NCBI GenBank assembly: GCA_041697335.1
Contig: JBGUGD010000019.1
Span: 1 to 60,982 of the forward strand
Direction: 5' to 3'
DNA length: 60,982 nucleotides
Source: Vampirovibrionaceae bacterium NZW_1234
Lineage (GTDB): Bacteria > Cyanobacteriota > Vampirovibrionia > Vampirovibrionales > JAGQHJ01
Every line of letters begins with the position of its first letter. The stretch's first letter is position 1. Position numbers and translations under genes: made by a program. Of the stretch, positions 1 to 60,636 are shown piece after piece. The notes beneath the pieces are model-generated. The model made no database searches. It saw only the letters and a list, made by a program, of their open reading frames with translations, and was not told where the DNA came from.

Positions 1-486
1 GACACCTATGTGGTGGATGATGCGGGTGACGTGGTCACCGAGAACGCCAACGAAGGGACCGATACGGTTCGGGCGAGTATCACCTACAGCCTGGTAGCCA
101 ATGTCGAGAATCTGGTGTTGACTGGCAGCAGTAACATTGATGGAACCGGCAACGGCTTGGCCAACTCCTTAACCGGTAACAGCGGCAACAACACCCTGGA
201 TGGGGGTGCCGGGGCCGACACGATGGCCGGCGGTGCGGGTGATGATACCTACATCGTGGATGATGCCGGGGATGTGATCACGGAAAATGCCAATGAAGGG
301 ACCGATACGGTTCGGACCAGCATCACGTACACATTGGGTGCCAACGTCGAGAACCTGGTGTTGACTGGTAGCAGTAACATCAATGGTACGGGTAACTCCG
401 GTAACAATACGCTGACCGGTAACACTGGCAACAACACCTTGAATGGTGGTCTTGGAGATGACACCTATGTCTTTGGGACAGGTGAC
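1..486 (+). repeat. 243-bp (81-aa) tandem repeat units inside the RTX gene
   Basis: gacacctatgtggtggatgatgc at 1 recurs as gatacctacatcgtggatgatgc at 244; the protein unit DTYxVDDAGDV...[11 protein letters not shown] repeats. Confidence 0.85.
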
Positions 487-831
487 GGCCAAGATGTTGT
501 GAGAGATACGGGCGGTACCAATGATAAAATCCTGTTCGGAGCTGGTTTAGGTACCGCTGATGTCGCCTTCTTTATGAATGGTACCACCCTTGAAATCGGG
601 TATGTTGGTAACGTAGCGGATAAAATATCGGTACAAAACCAAAGCGTTGCTATTAACCAGATTGATCGGTTCGAACTGAACAACGGTAATTACTTAACAG
701 CAGCTGACGTGAATCAAGTCATCCAGGATATTAATACCTATGCTGCTGGGAATAGTATTACCATCAACTCAATCGAAGATATCAAAGGTAATGCCTCTCT
801 GATGGCAATTATTACAGCTGCTTGGAATTAA
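1..831 (+). CDS. RTX/hemolysin-type Ca-binding repeat protein, C-terminal part (5' truncated by the window)
   Basis: GGxGxD nonapeptides (GGAGAD, GGAGDD, GGLGDD), NVENLxLTG repeats, and an RTX-type C-terminus ending IITAAWN; lies next to the T1SS genes. Confidence 0.93.
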
Positions 832-852
832 AAATCCGAGTGAGATTTATAC

Positions 853-889
853 AGCAATCCGTTATGGAAACATGACGGATTGCTTTTTT
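853..889 (+). terminator. Intrinsic terminator of the RTX gene
   Basis: agcaatccgttatg-gaaa-catgacggattgct followed by a T run. Confidence 0.85.
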
Positions 890-1001
890 AATGCGCTTAT
901 CCCTTTGGAGCGTGTTGCTGCCATTATTTGTTGATGTCGACACACGCAGATACTCAGATCCGCTTTAAAGCAGCATGGCTGAAGTTTACCACGATAAATT
1001 A

Positions 1002-1031
1002 AACCGCTGCTCAGTGAGCTGAGCAGCGGTT
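1002..1031 (-). terminator. Hairpin downstream of the hlyD-like gene, probable terminator
   Basis: Perfect 13-bp stem aaccgctgctcag-tgag-ctgagcagcggtt. Confidence 0.7.
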
Positions 1032-1052
1032 ATTGCTGATGGATATGTTTGA

Positions 1053-2375
1053 CTAGCGTACGCTAACGCTTTCGTTTAAAGAACGAATTAAGGGGTAAAT
1101 AAAGAATTCAATAATTTTACGCTTACCGACTTTAACTTCGGCAGTCACCGTCATGCCAGCTTTTAAAGGGGTTTCGTTACCGTTGACCTTTAAAGAATGT
1201 TTTTGAAGCTCAATACTTGCCTTATAGACGGGTGGCTGGTTTTTATCCTGATGACTGTCGCTGGAGAGCAAGAGGAGTTTGCCAGGGATAATGCCATATT
1301 TCTGAAAGTCGAAGGTATCCACTTTTACATTGACAGGAAGTCCCGTCTGGACATAGCCGATATCCTTATTTTGAATCGCTGATTCAACCACGAGGGGTGC
1401 ATTGGAAGGAATGAGCGACATAATTTTTTGGCCGGGTTGAACCACACCACCCACTGTGTTCATTGCCAATTCGTCTATAATTCCGTCTTCGGGAGAGGTT
1501 AATGTCTGTTTATCATTTTTAAATTCAATTTGTTTTATCTGAGCTTGGAGCTCGATACTGCGCTTTTGCATGAGGGCCAAATCTGTCAGGAGCTGGGTAC
1601 GATAATTTGACTGAATATACCCGATTTCTTTTCGGATTTGTGCTTCTTTGGCATACAGCTCTGAAATACGATGACTGGCCTCTTCGCGTTTCGTGGTGTG
1701 TTCCATTAATGCTTCTTCAACCTGTTCAAGATCACGCTTCGGAATAATTTCTCGGACGGGGCCCATGCGTGCCTGCTTTGCCAAATTGAGTTTGATCAAG
1801 TCGTCGGCATGAGCTTTTTCCTCTTTGGCAATGGCCAGTTGTTGTTGAATTTGGCGTAATTCTTCCTGCTTCGAATTGACCTGCTCGGCTACACCATTCT
1901 TCGAGGCATTGTATAACATACGTTGGGCTGCAATATGTTGAGCATCGTATTTCGTGGGGTTTGGTAAAAAGGAAAGGTTGTCTAATTCTGCCTGAATGCG
2001 TTCTTGCTCAAGCAAGGTATAATTTAAATTTTGAGTCATCGACTCTAATGCGGGTTCAATGGTGGAGGGGTCAATTTCGACGAGGGTTTGGCCTTTTTTT
2101 ACAAAGTCACCTTCCTTGACCGCGATTTTTCGGATGACGCCGGCATCTAAGGGTTGAATGATTTTGGCATGTCCTTGAGGAATAATTCGCCCTTTCGATG
2201 TTATGACGACATCCACTTCACCCAGTGTGAGCCAAAGGCCAATGCACAAAAGCAGTGCGCATACGATCCAAAATGTCGTTCGACCCAGGGGACTAATAGG
2301 GCGTTCTTCGATTTCTGCAAGAATGGGGTTAAATTCATGCAGATCCTCAGGCGGATGTTTAAACAAGGTAGGCAT
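1053..2375 (-). CDS. hlyD: HlyD-family T1SS periplasmic adaptor
   Basis: N-terminal TM helix, VKEGDFVKKGQTL lipoyl-like motif, coiled coil, and GMTVTAEVKVGKRKIIEFFIYPL C-terminus. Confidence 0.95.
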   Translation of the reverse strand: MPTLFKHPPEDLHEFNPILAEIEERPISPLGRTTFWIVCALLLCIGLWLTLGEVDVVITSKGRIIPQGHAKIIQPLDAGVIRKIAVKEGDFVKKGQTLVEIDPSTIEPALESMTQNLNYTLLEQERIQAELDNLSFLPNPTKYDAQHIAAQRMLYNASKNGVAEQVNSKQEELRQIQQQLAIAKEEKAHADDLIKLNLAKQARMGPVREIIPKRDLEQVEEALMEHTTKREEASHRISELYAKEAQIRKEIGYIQSNYRTQLLTDLALMQKRSIELQAQIKQIEFKNDKQTLTSPEDGIIDELAMNTVGGVVQPGQKIMSLIPSNAPLVVESAIQNKDIGYVQTGLPVNVKVDTFDFQKYGIIPGKLLLLSSDSHQDKNQPPVYKASIELQKHSLKVNGNETPLKAGMTVTAEVKVGKRKIIEFFIYPLIRSLNESVSVR

Positions 2376-4485
2376 TGGAAGTCATTTCCTGCTGCTTATA
2401 CAGATAGTGATAAAGTCCTTTTTGAGCCACAAGTTCTTTGTGGTTCCCCGCTTCTACCAACTGTCCTTTTTCCAGAACAAAAATGATGTCGCAATCCTGG
2501 ACTGCAGTAAGTCTATGAGCCACAATGAAGACAGTCCGTCCTTGCTGAATTTTTTTCATGTTATCAAAAATAATACGCTCGGATTCATAGTCGAGTGCTG
2601 AGGTTGCTTCATCAAAAATCAGAATTCGGGGGTCGGTGATTAAAGCACGCGCGATTGCAATACGTTGCCGTTGCCCTCCTGACAAGGTGGAGCCTCTCTC
2701 CCCAACTATCGTGTCATACCCCTCTGGAAGTTGTGTAATAAACTCATGGGCACCTGCCAGTTGAGATGCTTCGATAATATGCTCAATCGAGGCTTCAGGA
2801 CGTGCCATGGCTATGTTTTCTCGGATGGTACCACTAAAGAGGTAATTTTCCTGGAGTACGGTTCCAATATGATAACGAAGCCAAATGGGGTTCATATGCC
2901 GTGTATCTACATCATCAATGTAAATGGCACCCTCTTGCTGGATATAGAGACGTTGAATCAGTTTGGTGAGTGTGCTTTTTCCACTGCCACTTCGGCCAAC
3001 CAGACCAATACTTGCGCCGGGGGGAACACTAAAGCTAAGGTTCTTGAGGACATAAGGGGAATCCGTATTATATTTGAAGCAGACATTGTCAAATTTGACA
3101 TTCCCTTTGAGTTCGGGCAATGTAATTGCCTGTGAGTTTTGAACCTCGATAGGTGAATTCAAGATGTCCCCTAACCGTTCAACAGCCATCATGCTCTGCT
3201 GAAAGTCATTCCAGAGATTGACCAAACGTAAGACAGGGTTTGTAAGTTGGTTCGAAAACATCTGGAATGCAATTAATTGGCCTATTGTCATCTTGTTGCT
3301 TAAAACCAGGCCAACACCCAAATACAGGACTGAAATGACGATGGCTTTTTGGAGTAAGCCTGATAGGGCAGAAGCGATTGTAGCCAGAGAAGATAAATTA
3401 AAACTGGAGTTCAGATAATTGCCCAAATAATCTTCCCAGCGCTTTTGCATCGAACCTTCAATAGCCAGGGACTTAACGGTATTAATGCCTGTAATCGCTT
3501 CAACCAAATAGGAGTTTGCTTGGGCACTCATCTGGAATTTGGACTCCAAGCGAGAACGAAGTGCGGGAGTAATGAAAAAATAGATGATTCCAATTAAGCT
3601 CACAATCCCAGCGACAACCCCAGCTAGAAACGGGCTGTAAACTATCATCATTGCCAGAAATACAAATGAGAAAAACAAGTCGATAATAACAGTGACTGAG
3701 CGGTTTGTGATGAATTCTCGGATCCTATCCAGCTCTTTTACACGAGAAACGATATTACCTACTTTTCGAGACTCAAAATAGACATAGGGTAAAGCAAACA
3801 GATGTTTAAAGAGCTTTGCACCTAGTTTTGCATCGATTTTATTGGCCGTATGGATAAAAATGTAGTTACGTGTGATGTTTAGCAGAAATTCAAAAACAGT
3901 GACCATGCCAAATGCAAGTGCCATGACAATCAAGGTATTCATCGCATGATTGACAATGACTTTGTCCAGGATGACCTGTGTGAGCAAGGGGGTTGCCAGG
4001 CCAAACAATTGCACTAAAAATGAACCGAGCATGACTTCAGCAATGACACGTCGGTATTTGGAGATTTCCTGGAAGAACCAGGCGTAGCCGAACTTAATTT
4101 GTGATTCAATCTGCTTGTGTTTCAGGATGATGAGTCTGCCCGAGTTCAGTGAATCTAAGTCTTCAAAGGTTAAACTTTGAGTACTTTTGCTGATTGGATT
4201 GAATATCAGGCTTTTCTTTTCTGTCGTATCCACTTTTAATAGAACACGATAAATATTGTCATTGCCGATGATAATTGCCGGTAATGGATAGCGTGCCTGG
4301 GCCAACTTGGCCATGGTCAGTTTTTTGGATTTTGCTTTAAAGCCCTGGTGTTTAAGAATGCGAAGGAGTTCTTCCTCCCGTAATTCTGAATCGGATAATG
4401 CAAACTCTCTCGAAATCGAACGAGTATCAATCGCAATCTGATTGATTTGGGCAATGAGTTCTAATGCGAGTAATCCTGTTTGCAT
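2359..4485 (-). CDS. hlyB: HlyB-family T1SS ABC transporter with a C39-like N-terminal domain
   Basis: TM domain, Walker A GRSGSGKS, signature LSGGQRQR, Walker B ILIFDEATSALD; the N-terminal domain has no catalytic Cys. Confidence 0.96.
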   Translation of the reverse strand: MQTGLLALELIAQINQIAIDTRSISREFALSDSELREEELLRILKHQGFKAKSKKLTMAKLAQARYPLPAIIIGNDNIYRVLLKVDTTEKKSLIFNPISKSTQSLTFEDLDSLNSGRLIILKHKQIESQIKFGYAWFFQEISKYRRVIAEVMLGSFLVQLFGLATPLLTQVILDKVIVNHAMNTLIVMALAFGMVTVFEFLLNITRNYIFIHTANKIDAKLGAKLFKHLFALPYVYFESRKVGNIVSRVKELDRIREFITNRSVTVIIDLFFSFVFLAMMIVYSPFLAGVVAGIVSLIGIIYFFITPALRSRLESKFQMSAQANSYLVEAITGINTVKSLAIEGSMQKRWEDYLGNYLNSSFNLSSLATIASALSGLLQKAIVISVLYLGVGLVLSNKMTIGQLIAFQMFSNQLTNPVLRLVNLWNDFQQSMMAVERLGDILNSPIEVQNSQAITLPELKGNVKFDNVCFKYNTDSPYVLKNLSFSVPPGASIGLVGRSGSGKSTLTKLIQRLYIQQEGAIYIDDVDTRHMNPIWLRYHIGTVLQENYLFSGTIRENIAMARPEASIEHIIEASQLAGAHEFITQLPEGYDTIVGERGSTLSGGQRQRIAIARALITDPRILIFDEATSALDYESERIIFDNMKKIQQGRTVFIVAHRLTAVQDCDIIFVLEKGQLVEAGNHKELVAQKGLYHYLYKQQEMTSNAYLV

Positions 4486-4488
4486 TGT

Positions 4489-5841
4489 TTATACCGCCGT
4501 CATCAGTTTCATCTTCATCAGAGACACTTTTCGTCGAATATCCGCTTCCGCCAGGCGACGTTTTTCATCCAGAACTTCTGCTTGTTGGAGTAAAAGACGT
4601 GTTTTATCCAGCATTTCCTGTTGTGATAGCTTCTCAAACATAACCAGTTTTTCCTGGTTTTGGTTGACCAGTAAATTCTTATGTTCCATTTCCAGATGGC
4701 GTTCTTGGCTTTCTTGTTTCCACTTCATGTAGTTACGACGAATTTCATTTAACCTTTTCAGGTTTTCTAAATCTGCCTTGGCGGTTTCCAGTTTAACTCG
4801 TTTGACTTCTGCACTGTTTCGGATGTGGTCACTAATGGGAACATTGAGAGAGAAACCCACCGTAAATGTAAGGGGGCCGATGTCTCTTAAAGCACCACCC
4901 AATCTTGAGGGGTCCGTACCATACATGTTGTAATTGGCATAGAGGTTCAGTTGGGGCAATGCTTGTCGTTCTTGTGCTGCTAATTGTTCCTTACGCCGTT
5001 CCACTTCTAGTAAATACAACTTGTATTCCGGTGTTTTTTGCTCATCAAAGGGTTCCTCCTCAATGGTTGGGTCAACTTTAAATCCTGCAATTTCTATAGA
5101 GTCAGGGTCATAGGTTTCGTGGGTGAAATAGGAGAGTTCGATGAGCGCATCTTTAAATTTTTGCTTCAAGATTTGAATTTCGTCGGTGGTTTCCGCAACT
5201 TTAATCGCACTTTCGGCAACGTCCACCTTGGAAAGCATACCACTTTGATAAAGCCGGTTTTTCATTTGCATTACTTCCTGATAGAGCGGAAGCGTAAATT
5301 GTTTGCCCTTCAGGTTTATATAATTCGTCAGAACCGTGGCATAGGCGTCCGCGACCTGAATTTTTAGATCCCTTTCGGCTTTAATCTCGCTGATTTCTCT
5401 TTGTTTTAATCCTGCTTGAGCCAGCCTTAACTTGTGCTTCGCGATCCCAAATTGATAGATGGGTTGAGATAGATTGATCCCAATGAAACTTTGGAAACGA
5501 CTAACCGCTGAAGGTAAGATACTGTCACCTACAGCAATGGCATTCGGAGTATTATTATTTGCCAAGTTGCCGATATGTTCGGAATTCATCCGTAAGCTAA
5601 CCCTGGGCAGATATTCAATTTTAGCCTTGAGGACATCAACCTCACCCAGCTTTGTGTCGACTTCTGAAATCTTGACATCGTAAGAATTGTTGAGTGCTTT
5701 TTCCATGATGGTATCAAACTCAAGAAGCTCGGCATGAGCTGGTAATAATGGCAGCAGGCTTAAAGCTGTGCACATCAGCAAGCATTGTCGAACTCTATGG
5801 TTTACCCTGAGTAAAAGCCCAAGGGATTTTCTCTCCACCAT
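4489..5841 (-). CDS. TolC-family outer membrane channel
   Basis: Signal peptide ending AHA, two OEP-like repeats (YLPRVSL, ALPQLNL), in an operon with hlyB/hlyD; start trimmed to MVERK because the longer ORF overlaps the divergent gene. Confidence 0.85.
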   Translation of the reverse strand: MVERKSLGLLLRVNHRVRQCLLMCTALSLLPLLPAHAELLEFDTIMEKALNNSYDVKISEVDTKLGEVDVLKAKIEYLPRVSLRMNSEHIGNLANNNTPNAIAVGDSILPSAVSRFQSFIGINLSQPIYQFGIAKHKLRLAQAGLKQREISEIKAERDLKIQVADAYATVLTNYINLKGKQFTLPLYQEVMQMKNRLYQSGMLSKVDVAESAIKVAETTDEIQILKQKFKDALIELSYFTHETYDPDSIEIAGFKVDPTIEEEPFDEQKTPEYKLYLLEVERRKEQLAAQERQALPQLNLYANYNMYGTDPSRLGGALRDIGPLTFTVGFSLNVPISDHIRNSAEVKRVKLETAKADLENLKRLNEIRRNYMKWKQESQERHLEMEHKNLLVNQNQEKLVMFEKLSQQEMLDKTRLLLQQAEVLDEKRRLAEADIRRKVSLMKMKLMTAV

Positions 5842-12713: not shown

Positions 12714-13202
12714 ATGTTACGTGTCGGGATGCCGTTGAATACCCCCTATTTACCTCAAAAATCAAATAGACCCGATGAAGAAGAACTCAGGCAGGCCAAG
12801 GCCAAGCGTAAACAGCAGTATCAAGCGCGTTTGGCTCATGTCATTGCCCATGAAAATGCTCATGCCGCTGCAGGTGGGCGCTTTGCAGGGGCACCTGTGA
12901 TTGAAGCCGATGAAACGTCCGGCCATGTCTCAGGTCATGTGCCCATCCGAATGGATTTTGGCAAAACATCAAAGGATGCCCTGAGTAACGCACGCATTAT
13001 TTTTGGCGCTGCAACCGCTGTCTCTGATATGTCTGCAGCTGACTCGGCTGTTGCCGCAGCAGCCTTAAGTATTGGTTACAGCTTGGCCGCCAGTCGAAAA
13101 ATTCAAGAGGAGGCAGCCGAACGGAATGCGCACTCATCTGTTCGGTTCGCCTCCCAGCAGGGGCCTTTTCAGGCGCCAAAACACAATCCGTTTGCCCATT
13201 AA
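12714..13202 (+). CDS. SrpA-related putative metalloprotease-like protein
   Basis: AHENAHAAAGG (HExxH), GHVPI and MSAADSAVAAAA match the SrpA-related pattern; RBS ggagaagg precedes 12714. Confidence 0.65.
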   Translation: MLRVGMPLNTPYLPQKSNRPDEEELRQAKAKRKQQYQARLAHVIAHENAHAAAGGRFAGAPVIEADETSGHVSGHVPIRMDFGKTSKDALSNARIIFGAATAVSDMSAADSAVAAAALSIGYSLAASRKIQEEAAERNAHSSVRFASQQGPFQAPKHNPFAH

Positions 13203-18949: not shown

Positions 18950-19630
18950 ATGACTTCCCCTTCCGCCAATACGCCAGAACAGCCGAAAAAACGGACAGTT
19001 CACGATTATGTCGAATTGATCGAGACGGTTGCTCGTGTGGAATATAGCCGACTACCCAATCACTTGATTGACTACAGTGAGCTTGTAAATATTGGTGCTA
19101 TTGCGGTTCACGTCTTGCTGACGCAAAACCCGGATACGGAATATAACGTGACATACCTCTCGACCGCCATCAAGTGGGCGGTTCGTAACGAATTGCGGTA
19201 TCGCTATAAATGGTATTCCTTAAAACAAACCACCACGGAAGAAACCGAAGAATCCACCAGCACCCAAAGTGCTGAAGGAGGCGAAGGCGGTGACTTTGAA
19301 GTTGCCAAAGAACAGGTCCGTGAAGCGGTATATGAGACGATTTTGTCGGCTGATGCGATGCAGGAAGCCGAAAATCCGATGGAGTTGAAAGACGACTCCC
19401 ACACGCCAGAGGAAAATGCCGAACTCACGGAGATGGCGAAAGTGGTTCGTGAGTCCATTTCCAAGTTGCCGCCTCGTGAGCGTCAGATTTTGGAAGCCCG
19501 GTTCTATAAAAATATGAAAATGCGCGAGATTGGTGAAATCTACAATATTTCCCCATCTCGAATTTCTCGTATCCTGCAGTCTGGCTTAAACAAGGTCAAG
19601 CGTGACTTGCAACGCCGAGGTTACGCTTAA
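18950..19630 (+). CDS. Sigma-70 family factor, FliA/WhiG-like
   Basis: Region 2-like segment (ELVNIG...TYLSTAIKWAVRNELR) and region 4 HTH (LPPRERQIL...MREIGEIYNISPSRISRI). Confidence 0.88.
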   Translation: MTSPSANTPEQPKKRTVHDYVELIETVARVEYSRLPNHLIDYSELVNIGAIAVHVLLTQNPDTEYNVTYLSTAIKWAVRNELRYRYKWYSLKQTTTEETEESTSTQSAEGGEGGDFEVAKEQVREAVYETILSADAMQEAENPMELKDDSHTPEENAELTEMAKVVRESISKLPPRERQILEARFYKNMKMREIGEIYNISPSRISRILQSGLNKVKRDLQRRGYA

Positions 19631-19710: not shown

Positions 19711-20166
19711 CTATCGGTTTAAAGTCCTAACGGCGTGTTTGATGCGTCCCAAGCGATCCTGTAAGCTCATCCGAAGCAGATTTTCCTGATCAGAGTCGAA
19801 CATCAGCTTTAGTCGTTGCATGATATTGGGGCTGTCCAGCTTTAATTTGCGATGAAACTTAATGGATAATGCATTTTTGGCCCCGTAAAGTAAAATGTTT
19901 TGAGGCTCAGCCTGGTATTGATCGGCAAGTTTTTCAGCCAATGCAGCACTGACCAGGTTATTGTTCTTGTCATGGCAGAACAGCTCGATGCCATCAGCAT
20001 GGTTAAACGCAATAATGTCGGGTTGTGATTCTGTCCGAAATCCTCGCTTTTGGATAGCACGCTGGGCATTTTCAATGATCATGCCTGCAATCACGCCACT
20101 GGTGGGAGAGCCGGAGCGAAACTGCAATGAATAGTAACCCTGAAACCTTGGGCGACACGAAATCAT
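19711..20166 (-). CDS. Hypothetical protein with an N-terminal PRFQG leader
   Basis: RBS aaggag, 151-aa ORF ending at the shared terminator. Confidence 0.7.
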   Translation of the reverse strand: MISCRPRFQGYYSLQFRSGSPTSGVIAGMIIENAQRAIQKRGFRTESQPDIIAFNHADGIELFCHDKNNNLVSAALAEKLADQYQAEPQNILLYGAKNALSIKFHRKLKLDSPNIMQRLKLMFDSDQENLLRMSLQDRLGRIKHAVRTLNR

Positions 20167-20270
20167 AGGTGGTCTTCTCCTTCGATAGATTCATATGTTG
20201 GGTGGGACTCCTCAATGAACTCGAAGGACAAACCGAAATTGCGTATTTCAAATTTTATGAGAATTCAGGT

Positions 20271-20935: not shown

Positions 20936-22192
20936 TCATGATGTCATCATGTTCAGCCGCTGACCTTGTGCAGGCATTCCCTGTGGGACCCCGCCTCCGC
21001 GCTGCTGAAGCTGTTGTAACAGTTGTTGCATACCAGGAATGGTTGTTGGCCGCTGTCCTGGTTGAAGCATTTGCATTTGCCGAGGTGTGTTTTGCCCCGC
21101 AGGGTTAATGGGCATCGGCCCTCGTTGTCCTAATGCAGCCAATTGCTGGGCTGCTGGGTTTGGAGGTGCAGCCCCGCGCTGGGCTAATGCCTGAGCGGAT
21201 AGAACGGCAGGTGGGTTTTGGGCTGTATTTGCTGCCGCCATTTGCTTGGCTTCACGCTCTTGTTTTACCACGGACAGAATGTCACGGACATCGGTTTCCT
21301 CGAAACCATATTGTCCAGGTGCACTGAGGATTTTCTCCAATTCAGCCACGATATTATCGGTAATATTGCGCAACTCTCCCAGACGCATCTGCATCATGAT
21401 GGGGAAGCGCGTAATGGAATCCGTTTTCAGTGCTCGAATGATCAGGGCCTCAGCATAGCCGTTATATTCTGGCTTGCTCAGAATGTCCGGATCTTTGCGC
21501 AGTATGCGAGCGAGCTCTTTGGATCCCTGAAGTCGGAGAGCTTCATCTTCACTGCTGAGTTGGCCCGCGATTTCTCGGGTCTTATCCGGTGTCAGCATGG
21601 CCGTTTCTTGTAGCGGCTTTGTCGGCTCGGTCACGGGCTTCTTATCTTCAGTGGCAGGCTTTTTTTCCTCTGTAGGAGAAATGGGTGCCGCCGCCGGGTT
21701 GTTGGGTGGTTGTGGCTGAGGTGGCGGGTAAGCTGGGTATTGTGGTTGGGCCCAGTTATAGTACTGAGCCGGGCTATAGTTGTAAATGTTGGACGTTCCG
21801 GGAGGAATATACCCATTTCCATATGGAATATGCGTATTAAACAGACAAGGCGCAATTTCTTCAGGCCTGGGTATAGGTGGTAACGCTGCTCCTAACGGCA
21901 CCGATTGGGCTAGAGGCCCTGCCGGTGTTGTAATTGGACCAGGATTAGTTAAAGGCTGTGGGGTCTGCATTACCGGCTGGTAATAGGCAGTCGGCAATTG
22001 GGTTGTCTGCGGCGCTACGGGCGCAGCAATGGGAAATTGGGAAGCGTTTGGAACACCATAAAGGGCCGGATTTTGTGCTCCGCCCGGTGTAAATGATTGA
22101 TAACTTGGTAACCCGTAAGTCAACGAAGTATCCCCCAGAATTCCCCTATGTATATAAAACCCGGATCCGGGAAAAAGTTGCTGGGTTTTCAA
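20936..22192 (-). CDS. Pro/Gln-rich hypothetical protein with a central helical (HEAT-like) domain
   Basis: Low-complexity P/Y/Q termini around a helical core; start codon uncertain. Confidence 0.7.
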   Translation of the reverse strand: MKTQQLFPGSGFYIHRGILGDTSLTYGLPSYQSFTPGGAQNPALYGVPNASQFPIAAPVAPQTTQLPTAYYQPVMQTPQPLTNPGPITTPAGPLAQSVPLGAALPPIPRPEEIAPCLFNTHIPYGNGYIPPGTSNIYNYSPAQYYNWAQPQYPAYPPPQPQPPNNPAAAPISPTEEKKPATEDKKPVTEPTKPLQETAMLTPDKTREIAGQLSSEDEALRLQGSKELARILRKDPDILSKPEYNGYAEALIIRALKTDSITRFPIMMQMRLGELRNITDNIVAELEKILSAPGQYGFEETDVRDILSVVKQEREAKQMAAANTAQNPPAVLSAQALAQRGAAPPNPAAQQLAALGQRGPMPINPAGQNTPRQMQMLQPGQRPTTIPGMQQLLQQLQQRGGGVPQGMPAQGQRLNMMTS

Positions 22193-27842: not shown

Positions 27843-28469
27843 CTAGGGGGAAATAATAGATTCCTGTAGGTCAAAGGGAACCGGCTTCGGGGACTTGCAC
27901 AGGTACACATCACCGCCAACAACGCTGACACCGACAGGGGTGCTACTGGTTTTTTCACGATAAAGAGTTTCTATGGAATTCTCCTGCCCAGGTGCGACAA
28001 CCTGAATGGCCTCTTGAATAAATTGCTCCAAGTCGTCGTTATCCATGGAGCCTTGGATAATGTATATTTGGCCATTATCAATGTCCAGTTTGTGCTTGGA
28101 TTTGGCTTGCTGCAACGCACCGATGATGTCTTCTTCGGTTGTCGTATCCAGGATATGGGCTAAAAATTGTTTACGTTCATCGACAATAATGAGGGCACGA
28201 CACGTCTCTAGGCCCGTTGTAGCCAGTGGGTGCCGGTAGCGATCTCCAACGGCCCAGCAGTTCCAATTTACGTTGAAGGCTGGTCCCTTGTATTTTGCAT
28301 TTAACGCCTGGGCTGTGTGGTTTAAAGTTGAGCTGAAGCGTGTTAGGTTGACCTGATCGCGTAATACGCCCTGAAGGTTGTAGACAGGGCTCGGTGTACG
28401 CTTCCCCATTGTATGCAACGTGGCTTTAGAAGATAAACGCTGGCACGGTTGGACAGCCTGTAAGTACAT
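27843..28469 (-). CDS. Hypothetical protein, CheD/CNF1-like Cys-His deamidase-fold candidate
   Basis: LATTGLETCRALIIV...FLAHI motif; RBS present. Confidence 0.55.
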   Translation of the reverse strand: MYLQAVQPCQRLSSKATLHTMGKRTPSPVYNLQGVLRDQVNLTRFSSTLNHTAQALNAKYKGPAFNVNWNCWAVGDRYRHPLATTGLETCRALIIVDERKQFLAHILDTTTEEDIIGALQQAKSKHKLDIDNGQIYIIQGSMDNDDLEQFIQEAIQVVAPGQENSIETLYREKTSSTPVGVSVVGGDVYLCKSPKPVPFDLQESIISP

Positions 28470-46950: not shown

Positions 46951-47928
46951 ATGATGCGAACGGTTTCTGGCGTCAAATTAAATCAAATTCTTCCCAAATC
47001 TTCCGGGATTCTTCGCTTTGAGGGGCGTAAACTGAAGCAGAGCATTCAGCCCGATTTATTTTCGCCACATCGTCCGGACGTCAAGGGGCTTAATCGCTTT
47101 GCGGTCATTGGGGATGCCGGGAGTGGTAAAAAAGCCCAGTGGGATATTGCCCGACAAATGTTGAATGTTTATCAAAATCATGACAAGCCCTTTGCATCTG
47201 TTCTGGTCCTCGGGGACAACGTATATGAGGATGGCGAGCCCCATTTGTTTTATGAGCGGATTTATGAACCGTATAAAAAATTGTTTAAGCAACACATCCG
47301 TTTTTACCCGGTGATGGGTAATCACGATGTTCGTAAGGACTTCGGGGATAAGCAGTTGGCCTATTGGGGGGCACCGGCATATTATAACTTCACGCAAGGG
47401 CCGGTTGAATTCTTTGCGTTGGATACAACGGTCTTATTGCCGGGATATGAAAAATGTCATGCCCAAAATCCCTTTCTGGCCCAGACTCAAGCCAAAATTC
47501 AGATGACATGGCTTGAAAAAGCCTTACAGGATAGCAAGGCCAAGTTCAAAGTCGTTTATGGGCATTACCCGCTTTATTCCTCGGGCAAGCATGCGCTTGA
47601 TAAAGAGAGCACGTTGAAGTTGCGATCAATGCTGGAGCCGTTGTTCAAAAAATATGGGGTGCATTTGTATTTGGCCGGGCATGACCATCATTATGAGCGC
47701 ACGTTGATTGATAAAGTTCACTATTTCGTGAGTGGTGCGGCTGGAAAATTGCGCAAGATCTTTTTCCAAAATCCGGTTCAACACCGAGAAAAGGCGTTAG
47801 AGAAGCATCATTTTATGTTGTTTGAATTGGATAAGGACCAATTAAAGTACGAGGTGATTTCCCGAAAAGGGACGGTCCTGGATAGCGGGGTTGTTGGACC
47901 AACCAGTGCAACCCAGCTGAGTGCCTGA
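46951..47928 (+). CDS. Calcineurin-like metallophosphoesterase (purple acid phosphatase-like)
   Basis: IGDAG, LGDNVY, GNHD, GHYP, AGHDH; RBS ggagg. Confidence 0.92.
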   Translation: MMRTVSGVKLNQILPKSSGILRFEGRKLKQSIQPDLFSPHRPDVKGLNRFAVIGDAGSGKKAQWDIARQMLNVYQNHDKPFASVLVLGDNVYEDGEPHLFYERIYEPYKKLFKQHIRFYPVMGNHDVRKDFGDKQLAYWGAPAYYNFTQGPVEFFALDTTVLLPGYEKCHAQNPFLAQTQAKIQMTWLEKALQDSKAKFKVVYGHYPLYSSGKHALDKESTLKLRSMLEPLFKKYGVHLYLAGHDHHYERTLIDKVHYFVSGAAGKLRKIFFQNPVQHREKALEKHHFMLFELDKDQLKYEVISRKGTVLDSGVVGPTSATQLSA

Positions 47929-47937
47929 GGCAAAAAC

Positions 47938-49110
47938 TTACTTGAAGTGGGACAGCACCTGCTCAATCACATAGTCCTGCTCCTGATTGGAGAGCGAGGG
48001 GTAAAGCGGCAGGCTAAGGCAGTGATTGTAATAAAACTCGGCATGCGGATAATCGCCGGGGCCGGTGCCTAACGTGTCTTGATAATAGGGTTGCAGGTGA
48101 ACCGGAATGTAATGCACCTGGGGCATGATATTGGCGGCCACCAGCCGATCATACAGCGTCCTTCGTGAAATGGGCGAGTATTCCGGGTTTAAGCGAATGA
48201 CAAACAGGTGATGTCCGGATTGGGTGTCTTGGGTTCGCGCTTGCGTTTCGATGGCCGGATATGGGGCAAAGGCCGCTTCGTAGCGCTCGGCCAATTCCTG
48301 TCGACGCGCCACAAAGCCATCGAGTTTCTCAAGCTGAGCGGTTCCCAGCGCCGCCTGAATATCGGTGATGCGATAGTTATACCCGAGAAATTGCATCTCG
48401 TATTCCCAGGGCGCCCCTTCAAATACGCTGAAGGTGTCGGCATGCTTGGTAATGCCATGGCTTCGAAATTGGAGCAGCTTCTCATAGTAGCTGCGGTGTG
48501 GGGTGACGACCATGCCGCCTTCGCCCGTGGTGATGGACTTAACGGGGTGAAAGCTGAATACGGCCATGTCTCGACATTGACCGATAGGCTTGCCCTGATA
48601 CCGCCCCCCCAATGCATGGCAGGCATCTTCAATGACAACCAGATCATGGGCATCGGCCAATTGATAAAACGCGTTTAAATCAGCGGGTTGTCCGGCAAAG
48701 TGAATCGGTGCGAGTGCTTTGGTTTTTGGGGTGATTCGCGCTGCAGTGGCGACCGGATCTAAGTTCCACGTCCTCGGATCGATATCGGCAAAAACCGGCG
48801 TCCCGTTTTGGTAGAGGACAGCATTGGACGTGGCCGCAAAGGTAATGGGGCTCGTAACGACTTCATCACCCAGGCCAATGCCTGCCGCTGCGTATGCGCC
48901 ATGCAGGGCTGCAGTTCCGCTGGAAAAAGCAACCGCATAGGGGACACCGCAGTACGCTGCCACGGCTTCTTCAAACGCTTGAATGGCTGGCCCTTGGGTC
49001 AGATAGGGTGAATTTAACACCTCGATAACGGCTTCCACATCTTTTTCTCCCACACTCTGCTTGCCATAGGGAAGCGGGTGCGTGGGGGAAAAACGAGTGG
49101 GGTTAGACAT
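47938..49110 (-). CDS. pseC: UDP-4-amino-4,6-dideoxy-N-acetyl-altrosamine transaminase (DegT family)
   Basis: PYGKQ, LTQGP, SGTAALH, EDACHALG, SFHPVKSITTGEGG; follows pseB. Confidence 0.88.
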   Translation of the reverse strand: MSNPTRFSPTHPLPYGKQSVGEKDVEAVIEVLNSPYLTQGPAIQAFEEAVAAYCGVPYAVAFSSGTAALHGAYAAAGIGLGDEVVTSPITFAATSNAVLYQNGTPVFADIDPRTWNLDPVATAARITPKTKALAPIHFAGQPADLNAFYQLADAHDLVVIEDACHALGGRYQGKPIGQCRDMAVFSFHPVKSITTGEGGMVVTPHRSYYEKLLQFRSHGITKHADTFSVFEGAPWEYEMQFLGYNYRITDIQAALGTAQLEKLDGFVARRQELAERYEAAFAPYPAIETQARTQDTQSGHHLFVIRLNPEYSPISRRTLYDRLVAANIMPQVHYIPVHLQPYYQDTLGTGPGDYPHAEFYYNHCLSLPLYPSLSNQEQDYVIEQVLSHFK

Positions 49111-55351: not shown

Positions 55352-56146
55352 TCACGCCCGAGCCGGTTGACCCAGGCTTTCCGAACGGGAGGCGAGTGTC
55401 GTTGCAAGGGCGTGCGGGGTGGCAAAGGATGGGGCCGGATCCAGGCGCCCTGAGGCCAGATCGTGCTCGCCCACAGCGGTGTCGGTAATAAAGGGATTCC
55501 GGGGATTGTGCACCCAAGAACGCCCATCGGCGTGAAGCACGTTGACGGCCCGTACGCCCGGGGCCAAGGTGTACAGATTAACGGTATCCGGCCCGACGCC
55601 GCCGGCGACAAACGTGGGGATCCGCATTTCTCCGGCCAGGGTGCTGAGGGCGTCGATGCCAGCCACAATGTCTTCGCCGGATTCCGCTTCAGTGGGATCC
55701 GTGGAAAAGGGGCGCTGCGGATGGGCCTGAATCCACTGTTTCATCCGGGAGACAAGTTGCGACTTCAGGCCTTCTCGCTGATCGGCTTCAAGGGTTCTAG
55801 GGATGGGCAGGCCCAGACGTGTGGCCAGATCGCCTAGGGGCATGGCGGTTCCCATGGAGAGGTTAATGGCGGCCACGGCCTTGCCCGAGGCCACATGCGC
55901 TTTCACCTGGTTGACCAGTTGCTTGAGGGCTTCGCCGATGCGATAGCCGCCGCCCGGATCTCGGTTGGCCTGGACGGGAATCACCGAAAGCCGGGGAAAG
56001 GTTTTGTGCATCACGCCCATCACCAGGCGACCGTGATCGGTGTGAAAGTCATCCACCTGGAAGACGTCACCCACAGGTGTGTTTCGTGTTGTTGCACTGC
56101 TCTGTTCCCCAAAGCGAGGTGCTAACCATAACGCAGTCCGTATCAT
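55352..56146 (-). CDS. Degenerate subtilase (S8)-like protein with an RFG leader
   Basis: VDDF, HGRLV, INLSMG, VAGG and PSFATP align with the S8 D/H/S motifs. Confidence 0.6.
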   Translation of the reverse strand: MIRTALWLAPRFGEQSSATTRNTPVGDVFQVDDFHTDHGRLVMGVMHKTFPRLSVIPVQANRDPGGGYRIGEALKQLVNQVKAHVASGKAVAAINLSMGTAMPLGDLATRLGLPIPRTLEADQREGLKSQLVSRMKQWIQAHPQRPFSTDPTEAESGEDIVAGIDALSTLAGEMRIPTFVAGGVGPDTVNLYTLAPGVRAVNVLHADGRSWVHNPRNPFITDTAVGEHDLASGRLDPAPSFATPHALATTLASRSESLGQPARA

Positions 56147-56338
56147 TATCCCAAACTCCCGACGTATTCGGCCCAACCCAGTTATAGAATGCCTTCCAAC
56201 CTAAACTTGTGATGCCCACTGTAGCATAAAACAGCACTGGCTTAAACCTTCCGAAGGATATCATTTGCCATCCTACTGTGTTTTTGGTCTCATATTGGGA
56301 ATCAAATCACGTTAACGTTGTCCAGTGAGGGATGTTTT

Positions 56339-56728
56339 ATGAAACTTCCAACGATGTTGCCGCTTCGCTTTGGCACCCGGTACCGTTTCGATCTGGCAAA
56401 AGCACCGCAATTGCCTCAGGAGCGGGTTGATTTTGCCTTGCAGAAAATTAGTAAAGACTTCGGGACGTCCGTGGATGTCCGCTATGAGCGCATCAACTAC
56501 CAGCGCCGTCTGTTTGACAATCAGGGGCAGGAGGTCCAGGTGGATCAGATGGAGCCCAAGCACTGGGCCAACGTGGATATTTACACCCCCCGCACCCAAC
56601 CCAAGCCGGTGAACCAATTACCGGAGTTGCACGAGATCGATATTTACAGTACCAAACCCCCGACGACCCCTGATGCGGCTTTCGAGCGGGTCCTTGAAGA
56701 GGCCAAGGTCGAGTACCAGAAATTCTAG
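56339..56728 (+). CDS. Hypothetical protein with an RFG leader
   Basis: MKLPTMLPLRFG; RBS gaggg. Confidence 0.7.
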   Translation: MKLPTMLPLRFGTRYRFDLAKAPQLPQERVDFALQKISKDFGTSVDVRYERINYQRRLFDNQGQEVQVDQMEPKHWANVDIYTPRTQPKPVNQLPELHEIDIYSTKPPTTPDAAFERVLEEAKVEYQKF

Positions 56729-56816
56729 TTGTTTCGGCCCTTTCGCCCGGGCTTGACGCCGCCGTCTGCTTGCGACTTAATGACAGCATTGTCGAGGGTT
56801 GCGAGGAGGTTTTCTG

Positions 56817-57926
56817 ATGGTCCGGGTTGCTGAATATCGTCCAATTCGAGGCGCCATTGTTTTTCCGGCGGCGGTGAGATCGCCCGCACCGTTGCGATTT
56901 GGCGCCGAGCCAGCGCCGCCCATCCTCCAGACCCGACGGGAGGGGGCGACCCAGTACTTATGTCTCAGCGATCTGGGCAATGCCAACCGACTGTCCCGGC
57001 GAATGATCCATGCGCTGGAGGCGGCCTTTATTCAGGCTGAGAAAGACCCCGGCGTTAAGCGCATTGTGTTGGAAAGCGCCCACGAAAAGCATTTTTCCCC
57101 CGGTGCGGACTTGTTCCCGGAGATGGCTGTGTTAAACCAGTACAACGCCACGCTGGACAAATATCTGCCCTTCGTCCCCAAGAAAGTCCGGCGGACCATG
57201 GCGAGCCTGTGGCTGATTCCTTCGGTCCGGCGCTTCGCCTTGGACGGCTACCGCCTGCACCAGCGCATCGCCAACTCCCCTAAAGTGACGGTGGCCAAGA
57301 TGAACGGCTCGGCTATCGGCGGCGGTGTGGAGCTGGGGCTGGTGTGTGACTATATCATCGCGTCGCCCAAGACCCGACTGGTGCTGCCCGAGGTCAAGTA
57401 TGGGCTGTCTCCGGACTGGGGCGCCACGGAGCGCCTTCCCCAGCGCCTGGGCCGTACCCTGTCCAAGTTCCTGATTCTGGAGGGCGGCCTCATGGCGGAC
57501 AAGGGCATGGACAGCCCGGCAACCCTGTCGGCGGAAGACGCTCAAAAAATCGGCCTGGTGGATGCCGTCGTCCCTGCCGAATCACTGGATGCCTATCTGA
57601 CCCAGGCCTTTGACGCCGGTCAGTTTTCTACCAAGGCCAACCGCCCCAAGACTGCTGTAGCCGTCGACGCCATGGATGCCAAGATTCTGCCTCGCCTTCA
57701 AGGCACCCCCTTTGCGGCCAAGTTTCACCGCTATAAAACCGCTTCGGTGGATGATCTGATGGCCAACGAACTCCGGGGGCTCTACCGCCCCACGGTGGAG
57801 ATGGCCCTGCGCCGCATCGACAACGGCCCCAAGGTCAGCCGGTGGACCGTTGAAAAAGATCTGTTAACCATGTTCGGTTACTTTGCCCGTGTTCATCACG
57901 CCAAGAAGAAAGCCGCAGCCCAATAG
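56817..57926 (+). CDS. Enoyl-CoA hydratase/isomerase (crotonase) family protein with an RFG leader
   Basis: FSPGADL, NGSAIGGGVEL, LPEVKYGL.P; RBS gaggagg. Confidence 0.88.
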   Translation: MVRVAEYRPIRGAIVFPAAVRSPAPLRFGAEPAPPILQTRREGATQYLCLSDLGNANRLSRRMIHALEAAFIQAEKDPGVKRIVLESAHEKHFSPGADLFPEMAVLNQYNATLDKYLPFVPKKVRRTMASLWLIPSVRRFALDGYRLHQRIANSPKVTVAKMNGSAIGGGVELGLVCDYIIASPKTRLVLPEVKYGLSPDWGATERLPQRLGRTLSKFLILEGGLMADKGMDSPATLSAEDAQKIGLVDAVVPAESLDAYLTQAFDAGQFSTKANRPKTAVAVDAMDAKILPRLQGTPFAAKFHRYKTASVDDLMANELRGLYRPTVEMALRRIDNGPKVSRWTVEKDLLTMFGYFARVHHAKKKAAAQ

Positions 57927-57956
57927 CGGGGCAACGAAACAAGGGACGCCTGCTGC

Positions 57957-58493
57957 TTAGAGATCGATCTGAACGGCGTCCTGGGTGTTGTGGAAGTGAT
58001 CCAGTAGCGTATGACTTTCGGCCAGCCCTATCAGACGTTCACGAGTGACATGGTGAAGGTTGGCACCAAGCAGGCCCATGTTAAACCCTTCCGGGGCCGG
58101 TGCTTTTTCCAGATCTGCATCTTCCATCACTCGGGGAGTCACTTTTCCAGCCGCTTGCTGGGCTACGAGGGCTTCTGTAAAGGCTTTTAAATACTGGGCT
58201 TTTCGGCTTAATATGGCCATGGCCAGCTTGGCGACATCCGGGCCATCCACCACCAGGCTATGAAAGGGGTTAATGGGAAAGGCCACGGCCTTGGGCGTCT
58301 CGCCTCCCCCCGGCTGCGAGCGGACCAGCTGATCCACGTGATCCTGAACTTTTGCTTGAAACAACACCTGGGCGTCAGTCATGGCCTTCATGTAGGCCTC
58401 GGACTCCGCCGGGGTCGAATCCGGTTTCCAGACAGGCGGGTTGACTAGGCGCCCTTCAAGACGAGCAACACTGCCAAAGCGAACAGATACCAT
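57957..58493 (-). CDS. Hypothetical protein with an RFG leader
   Basis: MVSVRFG; RBS ggag. Confidence 0.7.
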   Translation of the reverse strand: MVSVRFGSVARLEGRLVNPPVWKPDSTPAESEAYMKAMTDAQVLFQAKVQDHVDQLVRSQPGGGETPKAVAFPINPFHSLVVDGPDVAKLAMAILSRKAQYLKAFTEALVAQQAAGKVTPRVMEDADLEKAPAPEGFNMGLLGANLHHVTRERLIGLAESHTLLDHFHNTQDAVQIDL

Positions 58494-59303: not shown

Positions 59304-59389
59304 GCCCCGGTGGCGAAATGGCATACGCAAACGACTTAAAATCGTTCACCCGTAAGGGTTTGCCGGTTCAAGTCCGGCCCGGGGCACCA
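59304..59389 (+). tRNA. tRNA-Leu(UAA), complete, with encoded CCA
   Basis: Acceptor GCCCCGG/CCGGGGC, anticodon arm AACGA-CTTAAAA-TCGTT, long variable arm ACCC-GTAA-GGGT, T arm GCCGG-TTCAAGT-CCGGC, ACCA end; TATAAT at 59283. Confidence 0.96.
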
Positions 59390-59472
59390 ATTTCATAAAG
59401 GTTTCGGCCTAAACGAATTGGGTTTGTCTAGTGAAATGAGGTCCTTCGGGTCTCACTCCGAAAGGAGTCACT

Positions 59473-60636
59473 ATGCAAACCCAATTCGCGTCTGTTAATG
59501 AGGCCATCGAATATCTGAAAATCCCACGATCCTCCTTCTTCCGCCTCCGAAAAGAGGGGAAAATCAAGGTGGAGACCCTTTACAAGGGTAAAACGCTGAT
59601 ATATAATATATATCGTATATCAGCAGAGTCATCAAACAACACCGAAACCGACGGCCCTATCGAAGGAGGGTCAGGAATGGCCGTCGATGTAGTAAACTCC
59701 TCTCCCCAAGAGGCGATGCCTCAGATTGTTCCACCGCAAAACCATGCCCAATATCTGAACGACTGGATTTTGTGGCGGGAACAGGGGCTTTATACTCGCC
59801 CTTGGTCTCAGGAATACAAAAGGAACTCCCTACGGTACATCAATAAGTATTTTGAGCGATGGGAGGTGATTTCCAGCAAGCACCTGGAGACATGGTTGAC
59901 GGAAACGCCAGTCATGCAGAAGACCTTGCGGGTCCATAAGCATGCCCCGGTTTCGTCATTCGCCAAGTTTCTGGTCCACAAGGGTCTTCTGAGCCGGGAA
60001 GAGTATCGGAATATCAAGGATCTCTACCCGAAAAAGAGTCCCTACTATCATCCGAAGCAACGGATTATTTACGAAGAGGATCTGGAGGTCATTTTGGAAG
60101 CCGCAGCAACCGATAACGCGCATCATTCCTATAATCGCTTCCTGAACGTGACTCTCATCCGGTTCTTATCGGCAACCGGGCTTCGGGCAAAGGAATTGTG
60201 CGACCTGAAACTAAGTGACTTGCACTTTAGCGACAAGTCCACACGCGCATTTGTCCATGTCCGGTGTGGGAAGGGCGGAAAGGAGCGATACGTGCCCTTC
60301 TCGTTGCAGGCTCAGGAAGCAATCCGGGAATACCTGAAGCATCGGCCAAACGTGGACGATGATCGGCTTTTCTGGGCCTTTAATCCCAAGCATGGTTATG
60401 TGCCCATTAGCCGCGATTGCGTGGTCCGGCGGATGAAGAACGTGAGCGACCGTTGCGGAATACCGTTTTCGGCGCACTCATTCCGACACTACCGGATTAC
60501 GCGCTGGGCAAACAGTCCGAAGATTCCCATTACAATGGTGCAGCTTTGGGCGGGGCATAGCAGCCTGATTGTTACCCAGCGGTATATTCATACCCGGAAT
60601 GAAGAGGCGCTTGCCTTCGCATTCGAGGGGGACTAG
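59473..60636 (+). CDS. Tyrosine recombinase/integrase with an N-terminal excisionase-like HTH
   Basis: TGLRAKE (R), GKGGKER (K), HSFRH, AGHSS, TQRYIH (Y); N-terminal SVNEAIEYLKIPRSSFFRLRKEGKI. Confidence 0.95.
   Translation: MQTQFASVNEAIEYLKIPRSSFFRLRKEGKIKVETLYKGKTLIYNIYRISAESSNNTETDGPIEGGSGMAVDVVNSSPQEAMPQIVPPQNHAQYLNDWILWREQGLYTRPWSQEYKRNSLRYINKYFERWEVISSKHLETWLTETPVMQKTLRVHKHAPVSSFAKFLVHKGLLSREEYRNIKDLYPKKSPYYHPKQRIIYEEDLEVILEAAATDNAHHSYNRFLNVTLIRFLSATGLRAKELCDLKLSDLHFSDKSTRAFVHVRCGKGGKERYVPFSLQAQEAIREYLKHRPNVDDDRLFWAFNPKHGYVPISRDCVVRRMKNVSDRCGIPFSAHSFRHYRITRWANSPKIPITMVQLWAGHSSLIVTQRYIHTRNEEALAFAFEGD

Follow-up and report, generated by a model that had tools for sequence, protein, structure and literature searches.

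Roughly 310 proteins of Vampirovibrionaceae bacterium NZW_1234, an uncultured bacterium related to cyanobacteria, about one in ten of its proteome, carry a short N-terminal leader whose motif, a fixed [V/P/L/I]-R-F-small word, lies at residues 3-58. The leader came to notice in contig C16 of assembly GCA_041697335.1 (JBGUGD010000019.1, 60,982 nt; this whole stretch is the window below), where the initial annotation, made from the letters of this contig, had proposed that several unrelated genes share it as an export or targeting signal. It is confirmed here as real and proteome-wide. Our literature search, which reached few subscription papers and no supplements, found no published description of the motif or of a T3SS (type III secretion system) in this lineage, and as far as it extended the leader is real, conserved and undescribed. 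We consider it somewhat probable that the leader is the export signal of a second, filament-less type III export set of the same genome (set 2 below), which would send these roughly 310 proteins into a prey or host cell.

The leader, its controls and its homologues

The source genome (handle G000) comprises 3.70 Mb in 41 contigs and is 94.75% complete. Genes were called with a purpose-written simple caller, which returned 3004 genes and whose start sites are approximate and shift between caller versions. The motif model was fitted by expectation maximization (EM) to the N-termini of this genome and describes an S/P-rich stretch followed by [V/P/L/I]-R-F-[G/S/A/Q]-[G/S/A]; proteins with a posterior >0.8 count as members. 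Over residues 2-50 of 2784 proteins, RFG is the most enriched N-terminal tripeptide, with 153 occurrences where 27.3 are expected; PRF, LRF and VRF come next. The posterior exceeds 0.5 in 351 proteins and 0.8 in 296 of 2879, and when an upstream ATG is allowed as the start, 17 of 436 further proteins become members, against 0/436 in shuffles. Among proteins of at least 200 aa, 220/2110 N-termini pass the threshold, compared with 5/2110 internal windows and 15/2110 shuffled N-termini, the shuffles being the fairer control because the EM model was trained on the same N-termini. The expectation that N-terminal RF(x)G exceeds background is thereby borne out, and core proteins are nearly free of it: the leader occurs in 2 of 331 conserved core genes and in 294 of 2548 others.

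In the window, the following genes were considered, each named in the text by its start and strand:

55352..56146 (-), leadered orphan, subtilase-like by features; P-R-F-G with RFG codons at 56108-56116; no Pfam match
56339..56728 (+), leadered 129-aa orphan; L-R-F-G with RFG codons at 56366-56374; posterior 0.99
56817..57926 (+), leadered enoyl-CoA hydratase/crotonase (Pfam); RFG codons at 56895-56903; posterior 1.0
57957..58493 (-), leadered 178-aa orphan; V-R-F-G with RFG codons at 58473-58481; posterior 0.99; ribosome-binding tag TGGGAG
19711..20166 (-), leadered 151-aa orphan; P-R-F-Q-G with RFQG codons at 20137-20148; posterior 0.89
46951..47928 (+), leadered metallophosphatase (Pfam); L-R-F-E-G with RFEG codons at 47014-47025; a Sec signal peptide in the same place in distant homologues
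27843..28469 (-), weak case; T-R-F-S at residue 45; posterior 0.16; promoter score 5.6; membership doubtful
47938..49110 (-), PseC-like aminotransferase (MSNPTRFS); posterior 0.13; excluded from the member count

The four adjacent genes 56146-, 56339+, 56817+ and 58493- start where the initial annotation had placed them, and ribosome-binding sequences stand just 5' of each ATG (TTGGGA, GAGGG, AGGAGG and TGGGAG, respectively). The starts lie upstream of the motif and not downstream of it. The 56146- gene passes 0.8 when the upstream ATG is taken as its start. Five of the seven cases first listed for the window, 20166- included, are clear. The 46951+ metallophosphatase, with a posterior of 0.56 (scored from start 46954+), is confirmed on the evidence of its homologues, and 28469- is no member by score. 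The warning that housekeeping PseC begins in a similar way was taken up, and PseC is not a member by score. As to the folds named at first, crotonase and phosphatase are supported by Pfam and the product of 56146- is subtilase-like by language-model features only (0.95, Peptidase_S8 on 61% of cluster members), whereas the deamidase fold of the 28469- product found no support. A protein search with the 58493- orphan returned only itself, and no usable Atlas match was obtained. An Rfam scan of the window matched only 1 tRNA; at 59304-60636, a tRNA and, after it, a tyrosine-integrase-like gene that closes the contig are likely to mark the edge of a mobile element.

It appears extremely improbable that the motif arises artificially from wrongly called starts, from base composition or from a repeat in the DNA. 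The gene caller is simple, its starts shift, and some scored members are probably false: at 12714-13202 (+) of the window, a posterior of 0.96 falls on G-R-F-A at residue 57, inside an apparent conserved domain. Against such an origin stand the ribosome-binding sequences before leadered starts, the few passing shuffles (15/2110 and 0/436), the maintenance of one protein motif across otherwise unrelated leaders, and the use of all synonymous codons to write RFG, because of which the motif is not codon-driven.

The leader is an addition in front of the catalytic domain, as the initial annotation had supposed and as leadered second copies beside leaderless paralogues bear out. In the 56817+ crotonase, similarity to a leaderless paralogue begins at residue 57; the five best-scoring of 19 loci from relatives all show an F-centred motif, and the homologues in G012, G028, G020 and G022 place it before the domain. 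A scan of a contig collection with the crotonase gave one archaeal match only. For citrate synthase, the query was compared with six long and four ordinary sequences chosen from 120 matches: four of the six long ones, which come from other sources, end unalignable leaders in RFG and two do not, and the four ordinary ones have no leader. Among 30 loci surveyed across the order, with the long frames in G022's and G135's second copies left aside, the leader was found only in G000 and G002, both of which also have a normal copy.

The window phosphatase fits a strict pattern, set beforehand, in 25 of its 57 near homologues. With a looser F-motif pattern, chosen after the data had been seen, 32 of 36 homologues of at least 50% identity show the motif, compared with 11.6 in shuffles (maximum 17); the figures fall to 16/31 (shuffles 9.9) at 45-50% identity and to 8/30 (5.7) at lower identity. 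Distant phosphatase clades have a Sec signal where the leader stands in the window phosphatase, and the same exchange is seen in one paralogue pair within the genome, so that in two families the leader takes the place of a Sec signal. In five phosphatase homologues (P0338, P0339, P0344, P0345 and P0352, one of them named Elusimicrobiota), VRFEA or VRFTA follows just after a Sec-type signal, which may be chance or a parallel tag.

Composition, cargo and shared regulation

The claim that the leaders are rich in S and P and nearly free of acidic residues is upheld by their composition (1.9% D, 1.0% E, 12.9% S, 10.3% P; median net charge +2), with acidic residues making up 0-5% ahead of the motif and rising to 7-12% behind it. 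Type III N-terminal signals tend to have an aliphatic residue at position 3 or 4, an acid-free stretch over the first 12 residues and a Ser-rich stretch over the first 50. I, L or V stands at position 3 or 4 in 158/218 leadered proteins vs 812/1985 others, D and E are absent from the first 12 residues in 171/218 vs 670/1985, and the first 50 residues are Ser-rich in 89/218 vs 313/1985; all three rules together hold for 52/218 leadered proteins and 50/1985 others.

Sec-like hydrophobic (h-) regions occur in 7/296 leadered proteins vs 453/2438 others, and four or more further transmembrane segments in 0/296 vs 146/2438. The original statement that Sec and Tat features are missing holds for the leader itself and fails for what follows it: a basic-plus-hydrophobic segment 3-36 residues behind the F is present in 19/296 vs 60/2044 controls (p 0.005), a count that falls to 2/296 when the search is shifted by 60. 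Tat-like signals stand behind the motif in 3/296 vs 2/2044, and lipobox-like ones in 2/296 vs 3/2044. Because Sec-, Tat- or lipoprotein-like signals stand behind the motif in 19/296, a two-step targeting is suggested.

Of the 296 leadered proteins, 91 were searched against Pfam together with 60 controls, drawn from 110 that had been selected at the same loci; 34/91 and 44/60, respectively, had a match, and the predicted excess of orphans is therefore present (57/91 vs 16/60 without a match, p 1.5e-5). The cargo that could be named comprises proteases (subtilase, calpain-like, Lon, FtsH-like, ClpP, Clp AAA, M16), metabolic enzymes (citrate synthase, malate dehydrogenase (MDH), thiolase, aldehyde dehydrogenase, MalQ, amylase), and phosphatases, ADP-ribosylglycohydrolase, guanylate kinase, deaminases, NAPRTase and HtrA-like proteins. 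Many are second copies beside a leaderless paralogue, the alignment starting after the motif, and every family checked keeps a leaderless housekeeping copy; the leadered share is 4/6 for FtsH-like proteins, 1/2 for ClpP and 2/4 for Clp AAA. An "effector repertoire", as first proposed, is thus too narrow a term for a set that includes duplicated central-metabolic and proteostasis enzymes. Elsewhere in the genome, L131:3006-4190 (contig C37) encodes a RuBisCO large-chain-like protein (Pfam) in a non-photosynthetic lineage.

This cargo also bears on the idea of the leader as a mimic of transit peptides of chloroplasts or mitochondria, which the import machinery and processing peptidase of algal prey would read once the protein had entered by whatever route. 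Transit peptides and presequences tend to begin with Met-Ala and to form an amphipathic helix, and thylakoid-lumen signals are built of two parts. The leader resembles them as an acid-free, S/T/P/R-rich, positively charged addition to duplicated metabolic and protease genes; it is sometimes followed by a Sec- or Tat-like signal, in the manner of thylakoid-lumen targeting; and its cargo resembles organelle proteomes (tricarboxylic acid (TCA) cycle enzymes, MalQ, amylase, FtsH, Clp, Lon, HtrA-like, M16). However, Ala at position 2 is depleted (5/218 leadered vs 211/1985 others), neither helical nor strand amphipathicity rises above shuffles (hydrophobic moment equal to shuffles, 164 leaders), many leaders are very short (61/296 have at most 10 residues), transit peptides are not known to have a motif so fixed, the leader is encoded in a bacterial genome, and exit from the bacterium would be left unexplained. 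Organelle mimicry, one of the options raised at the outset, is weakened by these results and seems very improbable as the whole explanation, while being compatible with type III export as a second step. In the published genome account of Vampirovibrio chlorellavorus, as far as its text was available, this bacterium empties Chlorella cells (PMC4451040).

Leadered genes are mostly first in their operons (internal in 20/296 vs 577/2438), and in 61/294 cases the neighbouring next gene is leadered as well. Mostly 60-80 nt 5' of them lies a motif, GCAATTT-N(about 16)-TTTAT, found before 86/263 leadered and 55/1668 other first-in-operon genes; in cross-validation, a model trained on either half recovers 46/131 and 27/132 of the genes kept apart, compared with about 50/1668 others. 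Because the 55 genes that share this upstream motif and lack the protein motif often have acid-free N-termini (an h-region occurs in only 1), the regulon is larger than the motif set. The ribosome-binding tag TGGGAG, seen also at 58493-, lies at -28..-1 in 25/263 leadered vs 24/1668 other genes. Two features of the window belong to this regulation:

20210..20245 (-), copy of GCAATTT-N(about 16)-TTTAT, predicted promoter before the 20166- gene, score 8.9 at -79
18950..19630 (+), sigma factor of FliA/WhiG-like type, with 42% identity to the one behind set-2 flhB

The 18950+ sigma factor is a candidate reader of the shared promoter. Copies of the upstream motif also stand before window genes without the protein motif, 20936-22123 (-) and 18690 (+), with scores of 9.9 and 11.9. 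A second, CCGATA-like promoter common to leadered genes and set-2 operons was considered and rejected, there being no enrichment, and counts of a simple promoter pattern in relatives were too small to use.

With cargo and regulation in view, the leader could alternatively be a removable cap or address used inside the bacterium or in a second compartment of its own, such as an attachment pad or an offspring-like cell. A peptidase would cut at or after R-F-G and unmask stage-specific isoenzymes and their signals, and set 2 would be unrelated or feed the compartment. The genome encodes its own TatC and M16 peptidases, the rise in acidic residues across the motif is what a cleavage boundary would give, the second signals are of bacterial type (two lipoboxes among them), and there is one regulon with FliA/WhiG-like sigma factors. 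On the other side, the leader replaces a Sec signal in two families and does not precede it, most of the sampled cargo has no Pfam match, polytopic membrane proteins are absent from the leadered set, and a leaderless housekeeping copy is kept in every family checked. On balance we regard an internal cap as unlikely.

The second type III export set

Two FHIPEP genes indicate two type III export sets in the genome. Set 1 is a full flagellum; the genome also has two MotAB pairs, assigned to neither set. Set 2 is spread over four contigs:

C32: two rod proteins, FlgB, FlgC, lytic transglycosylase, FliE, FliF, a gene in the FliG slot, FliH, FlhA, FliI
C8: FliN-like, FliO, FliP, FliQ, FliR
C29: FlhB and a sigma factor (C29:179899-180600, the second copy of the sigma family in the genome)
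C30: FliJ, a weak FliK-like protein, and a 280-aa FlgG/FlgE-like protein (short hook; the true hook has 366 aa)

Searches of the genome with tblastn revealed no second set of flagellin, FlgK, FlgL, FlgD, FlgH, FlgI, FlgA, FliM or FliG, and the FliG-slot gene has no FliG match (Pfam; hhalign 2.5%). Single-sequence fold predictions are too poor for fold searches (predicted local distance difference test 51 for the FliG-slot protein, 35 for the short hook). Under the definition of Abby and Rocha, by which at least 7 of the 8 core T3SS genes sctJNQRSTUV are present, set 2 has FliF2, FliI2, FliMN-like, FliP2, FliQ2, FliR2, FlhB2 and FlhA2; it has no secretin SctC of its own, and it keeps flgB, flgC and fliE, which a non-flagellar T3SS lacks. 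Set 2 counts neither as a non-flagellar T3SS nor as a motile flagellum. Its FlhA scores below both hidden Markov model cut-offs (678/772 for FlhA, 586/692 for SctV), and the 28 database representatives nearest to it all have a better score for FlhA than for SctV. A quick tree of 45 rows, whose SctV references are five plasmid-borne sequences and include no chlamydial or myxococcal one, places it in a clade of its own (SH-aLRT 100) apart from these five and from flagellar FlhA; it may be sister either to SctV or to flagellar FlhA (support 80).

Relatives, labelled by genome handle and family (f2-f11), were covered by 120 genomes of the class. FlhA-type matches occur in f2 (15/15), f3 (10/10), f4 (2/2), f6 (22/23), f7 (25/25), f8 (8/8), f9 (11/11) and f11 (1/1) and are missing from f5 (0/23) and f10 (0/2); G037 (f4) has the flagellar type of FlhA only. 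Flagellin and FlgI gave no match in f7 (0/10), f8 (0/8) and f9 (0/10), families that keep set-2 FlhA, and a search for the short hook at E 1e-25 gave nothing in f8. The sigma family is present in two copies in G000, f2, f3, f7 and G031 and in one copy in f6, most f8, f9, f11 and G037, and it is absent from f5 and f10; several f7 genomes have one copy at a distance of about 5 kb from the gene for the short hook. By its distribution, the sigma family tracks set 2 across the class. Three observations stand beside these counts. The f7 genomes show two FlhA-type matches though no flagellin was found; 1-2 TAG stops lie inside FlhA-type matches of several f2/f6 genomes (G005, G011, G013, G064, G069, G095, G116), which could be overrun ends or recoding; and G044, G054 and G031 have 20-34 flagellin-domain matches each.

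Other exporters of the cell could in principle read the leader, namely the set-1 flagellum, an ABC exporter of the peptidase-C39 type (double-glycine leaders) or a type IV secretion system (T4SS) absent from the assembly. The flagellum is complete, and there are seven C39 matches, one of them in a type I operon of the window; the assembly is incomplete, and according to the available part of its genome paper, the T4SS of V. chlorellavorus is partly plasmid-borne (PMC4451040). Nevertheless, the double-glycine consensus (LSxxELxxIxGG-type) is found neither in the motif set nor in any other called protein of the proteome, the flagellar subunits of the genome are without the RFG motif, leader-like examples occur in the flagellin-less f7, and VirB4 (PF03135) has no match in the 94.75% complete genome, so that the T4SS branch of the original proposal finds no support. 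We regard such an exporter as quite improbable. The type I secretion cluster (10-5775) consists of a repeat-rich protein fragment at the contig end, an HlyD-like protein, a C39-like ABC transporter and a TolC-like protein, names that rest partly on the look of the sequence.

Proposed export into another cell and its meaning

Export through set 2 remains the explanation towards which the evidence tilts, and the flagellar/T3SS branch of the initial annotation is favoured by the second export set and by the type III-like N-termini; recognition by set 2, export, destination and cleavage are steps that we infer. On contact with prey or a host, an alternative sigma factor of the family represented by 18950+ and by the gene behind set-2 flhB would turn the regulon on. 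Much as early flagellar subunits use two signals, the unfolded protein might then engage the set-2 gate through its aliphatic, acid-free N-terminus together with the Phe motif, and the set-2 rod and short hook would serve as the conduit. Cargo enzymes such as citrate synthase, MDH, thiolase, FtsH, Lon and Clp need ATP, NAD or CoA, which the periplasm and the medium do not supply; the destination would therefore be a cytoplasm-like compartment of the other cell that provides them. About 6% of the cargo has a second signal, Sec-, Tat- or lipoprotein-like, which the translocases of the recipient may read, perhaps once the leader has been cut off.

Several results weigh against this explanation. 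No direct link between leader and set 2 was found: the protein motif is missing from the rod and hook subunits of set 2 (scores at most 0.04), none of the set-2 operons carries the shared upstream motif (scores no higher than 3.1), and an R-F-S in the lytic transglycosylase, considered as a link, was rejected since it is not kept in orthologues. The machine itself has no secretin, both secretins of the genome sitting in type IV pilus and Tad loci, no P/L ring by tblastn with FlgH and FlgI, and no match for the gatekeeper HrpJ; no needle or translocon turned up, with no search aimed at those families. (A CesT chaperone search was blank, and equally blank in its controls.) A membrane-anchored FtsH of 700-990 aa would, to our knowledge, be unusual type III cargo, and the small Tat-like and lipobox counts (3 and 2) are a weak basis for second signals. 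In 61/296 leaders the F stands within the first 10 residues, far closer than the gate motif of FlgD. In genome samples of 80-400 kb from relatives with set 2, leaders number 10/198 in f3 (4.1 internal, 6.4 shuffled), 9/234 in f7 (4.6, 7.0), 7/200 in f2, 7/221 in f8, 5/215 in f9, 2/80 in f6 and 2/56 in G031, and enrichment is weak at most, reaching significance over shuffles in none of them, compared with 307/2784 in G000. Sampled relatives without set 2 gave 2/238, 1/36 and 0/57. Single clear leaders occur in f2, f3, f7 and G031; the 11% share is seen only in G000.

Early flagellar subunits have been described, in the part of the work available, to carry an N-terminal hydrophobic signal and a gate recognition motif that docks on FlhB-C, at residues 36-40 in FlgD, the spacing between the two being of importance (PMC8983047). 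The leader is similar in being an unchaperoned two-part N-terminal signal, with aliphatics at about positions 2-5, followed at some distance by a short hydrophobic motif, in a genome with an FlhA/FlhB/FliPQR gate. It differs in being a fixed word on about 310 non-structural proteins, with its F at no set distance, and in its absence from the set-2 rod and hook subunits.

Compared with non-flagellar T3SSs, as the accessible sections of their comparative survey present them, set 2 likewise has core export-gene homologues over several loci, as in Chlamydia, and no filament, and it is secretin-less like the T3SS described from Myxococcales, for which protein translocation was proposed; unlike them, it keeps FlgB, FlgC and FliE, which are used to define flagella, together with FlgF/G and a short hook (PMC3459982). 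Its FlhA also falls outside the SctV clade of the five plasmid-borne references. A further parallel is provided by the partial flagella of Melainabacteria, which have the same genes. In the main texts consulted, MEL.A1 has no filament, cap, junction or L/P rings, two flhA are listed for ACD20, and these papers of 2013-2018 read the partial set as a flagellum or a decaying one (PMC3787301, PMC4040986, PMC5877343), while a preprint postulates a secretory role for the retained flhB, fliI and flgG (bioRxiv 10.64898/2026.04.24.720558). No substrate signal is mentioned in the accessible parts of these four sources, and in the present genome set 2 differs in standing beside a complete flagellum as a separate paralogous system.

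A bolder version of export through set 2, which we hold possible though doubtful, is that a dedicated rod-and-hook type III machine, with an origin from the flagellum apart from that of known injectisomes, ships one tenth of all proteins out under a single linear tag and installs a working kit of TCA, fatty-acid, starch, nucleotide-salvage and protease enzymes together with Sec-, Tat- and lipoprotein-routed parts. The destination would be a captured bacterial cell or chloroplast, then run like an organelle, amounting to protein import in reverse.

Type III export signals, as far as we know, usually have no readable consensus. If export through set 2 is true, about 310 natural substrates that share one fixed motif would open type III signal recognition to direct testing, and the secreted proteins of a predator could be listed from sequence alone. 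For the Vampirovibrio "spike", which the available part of its genome account ascribes tentatively to a partly plasmid-borne T4SS (PMC4451040), set 2 would offer an alternative encoded on the chromosome, and the "incomplete flagella" of gut Melainabacteria may be re-read as an intact secretion system. A secretin-less machine that retains its rod would also bear on the origin of injectisomes from flagella.

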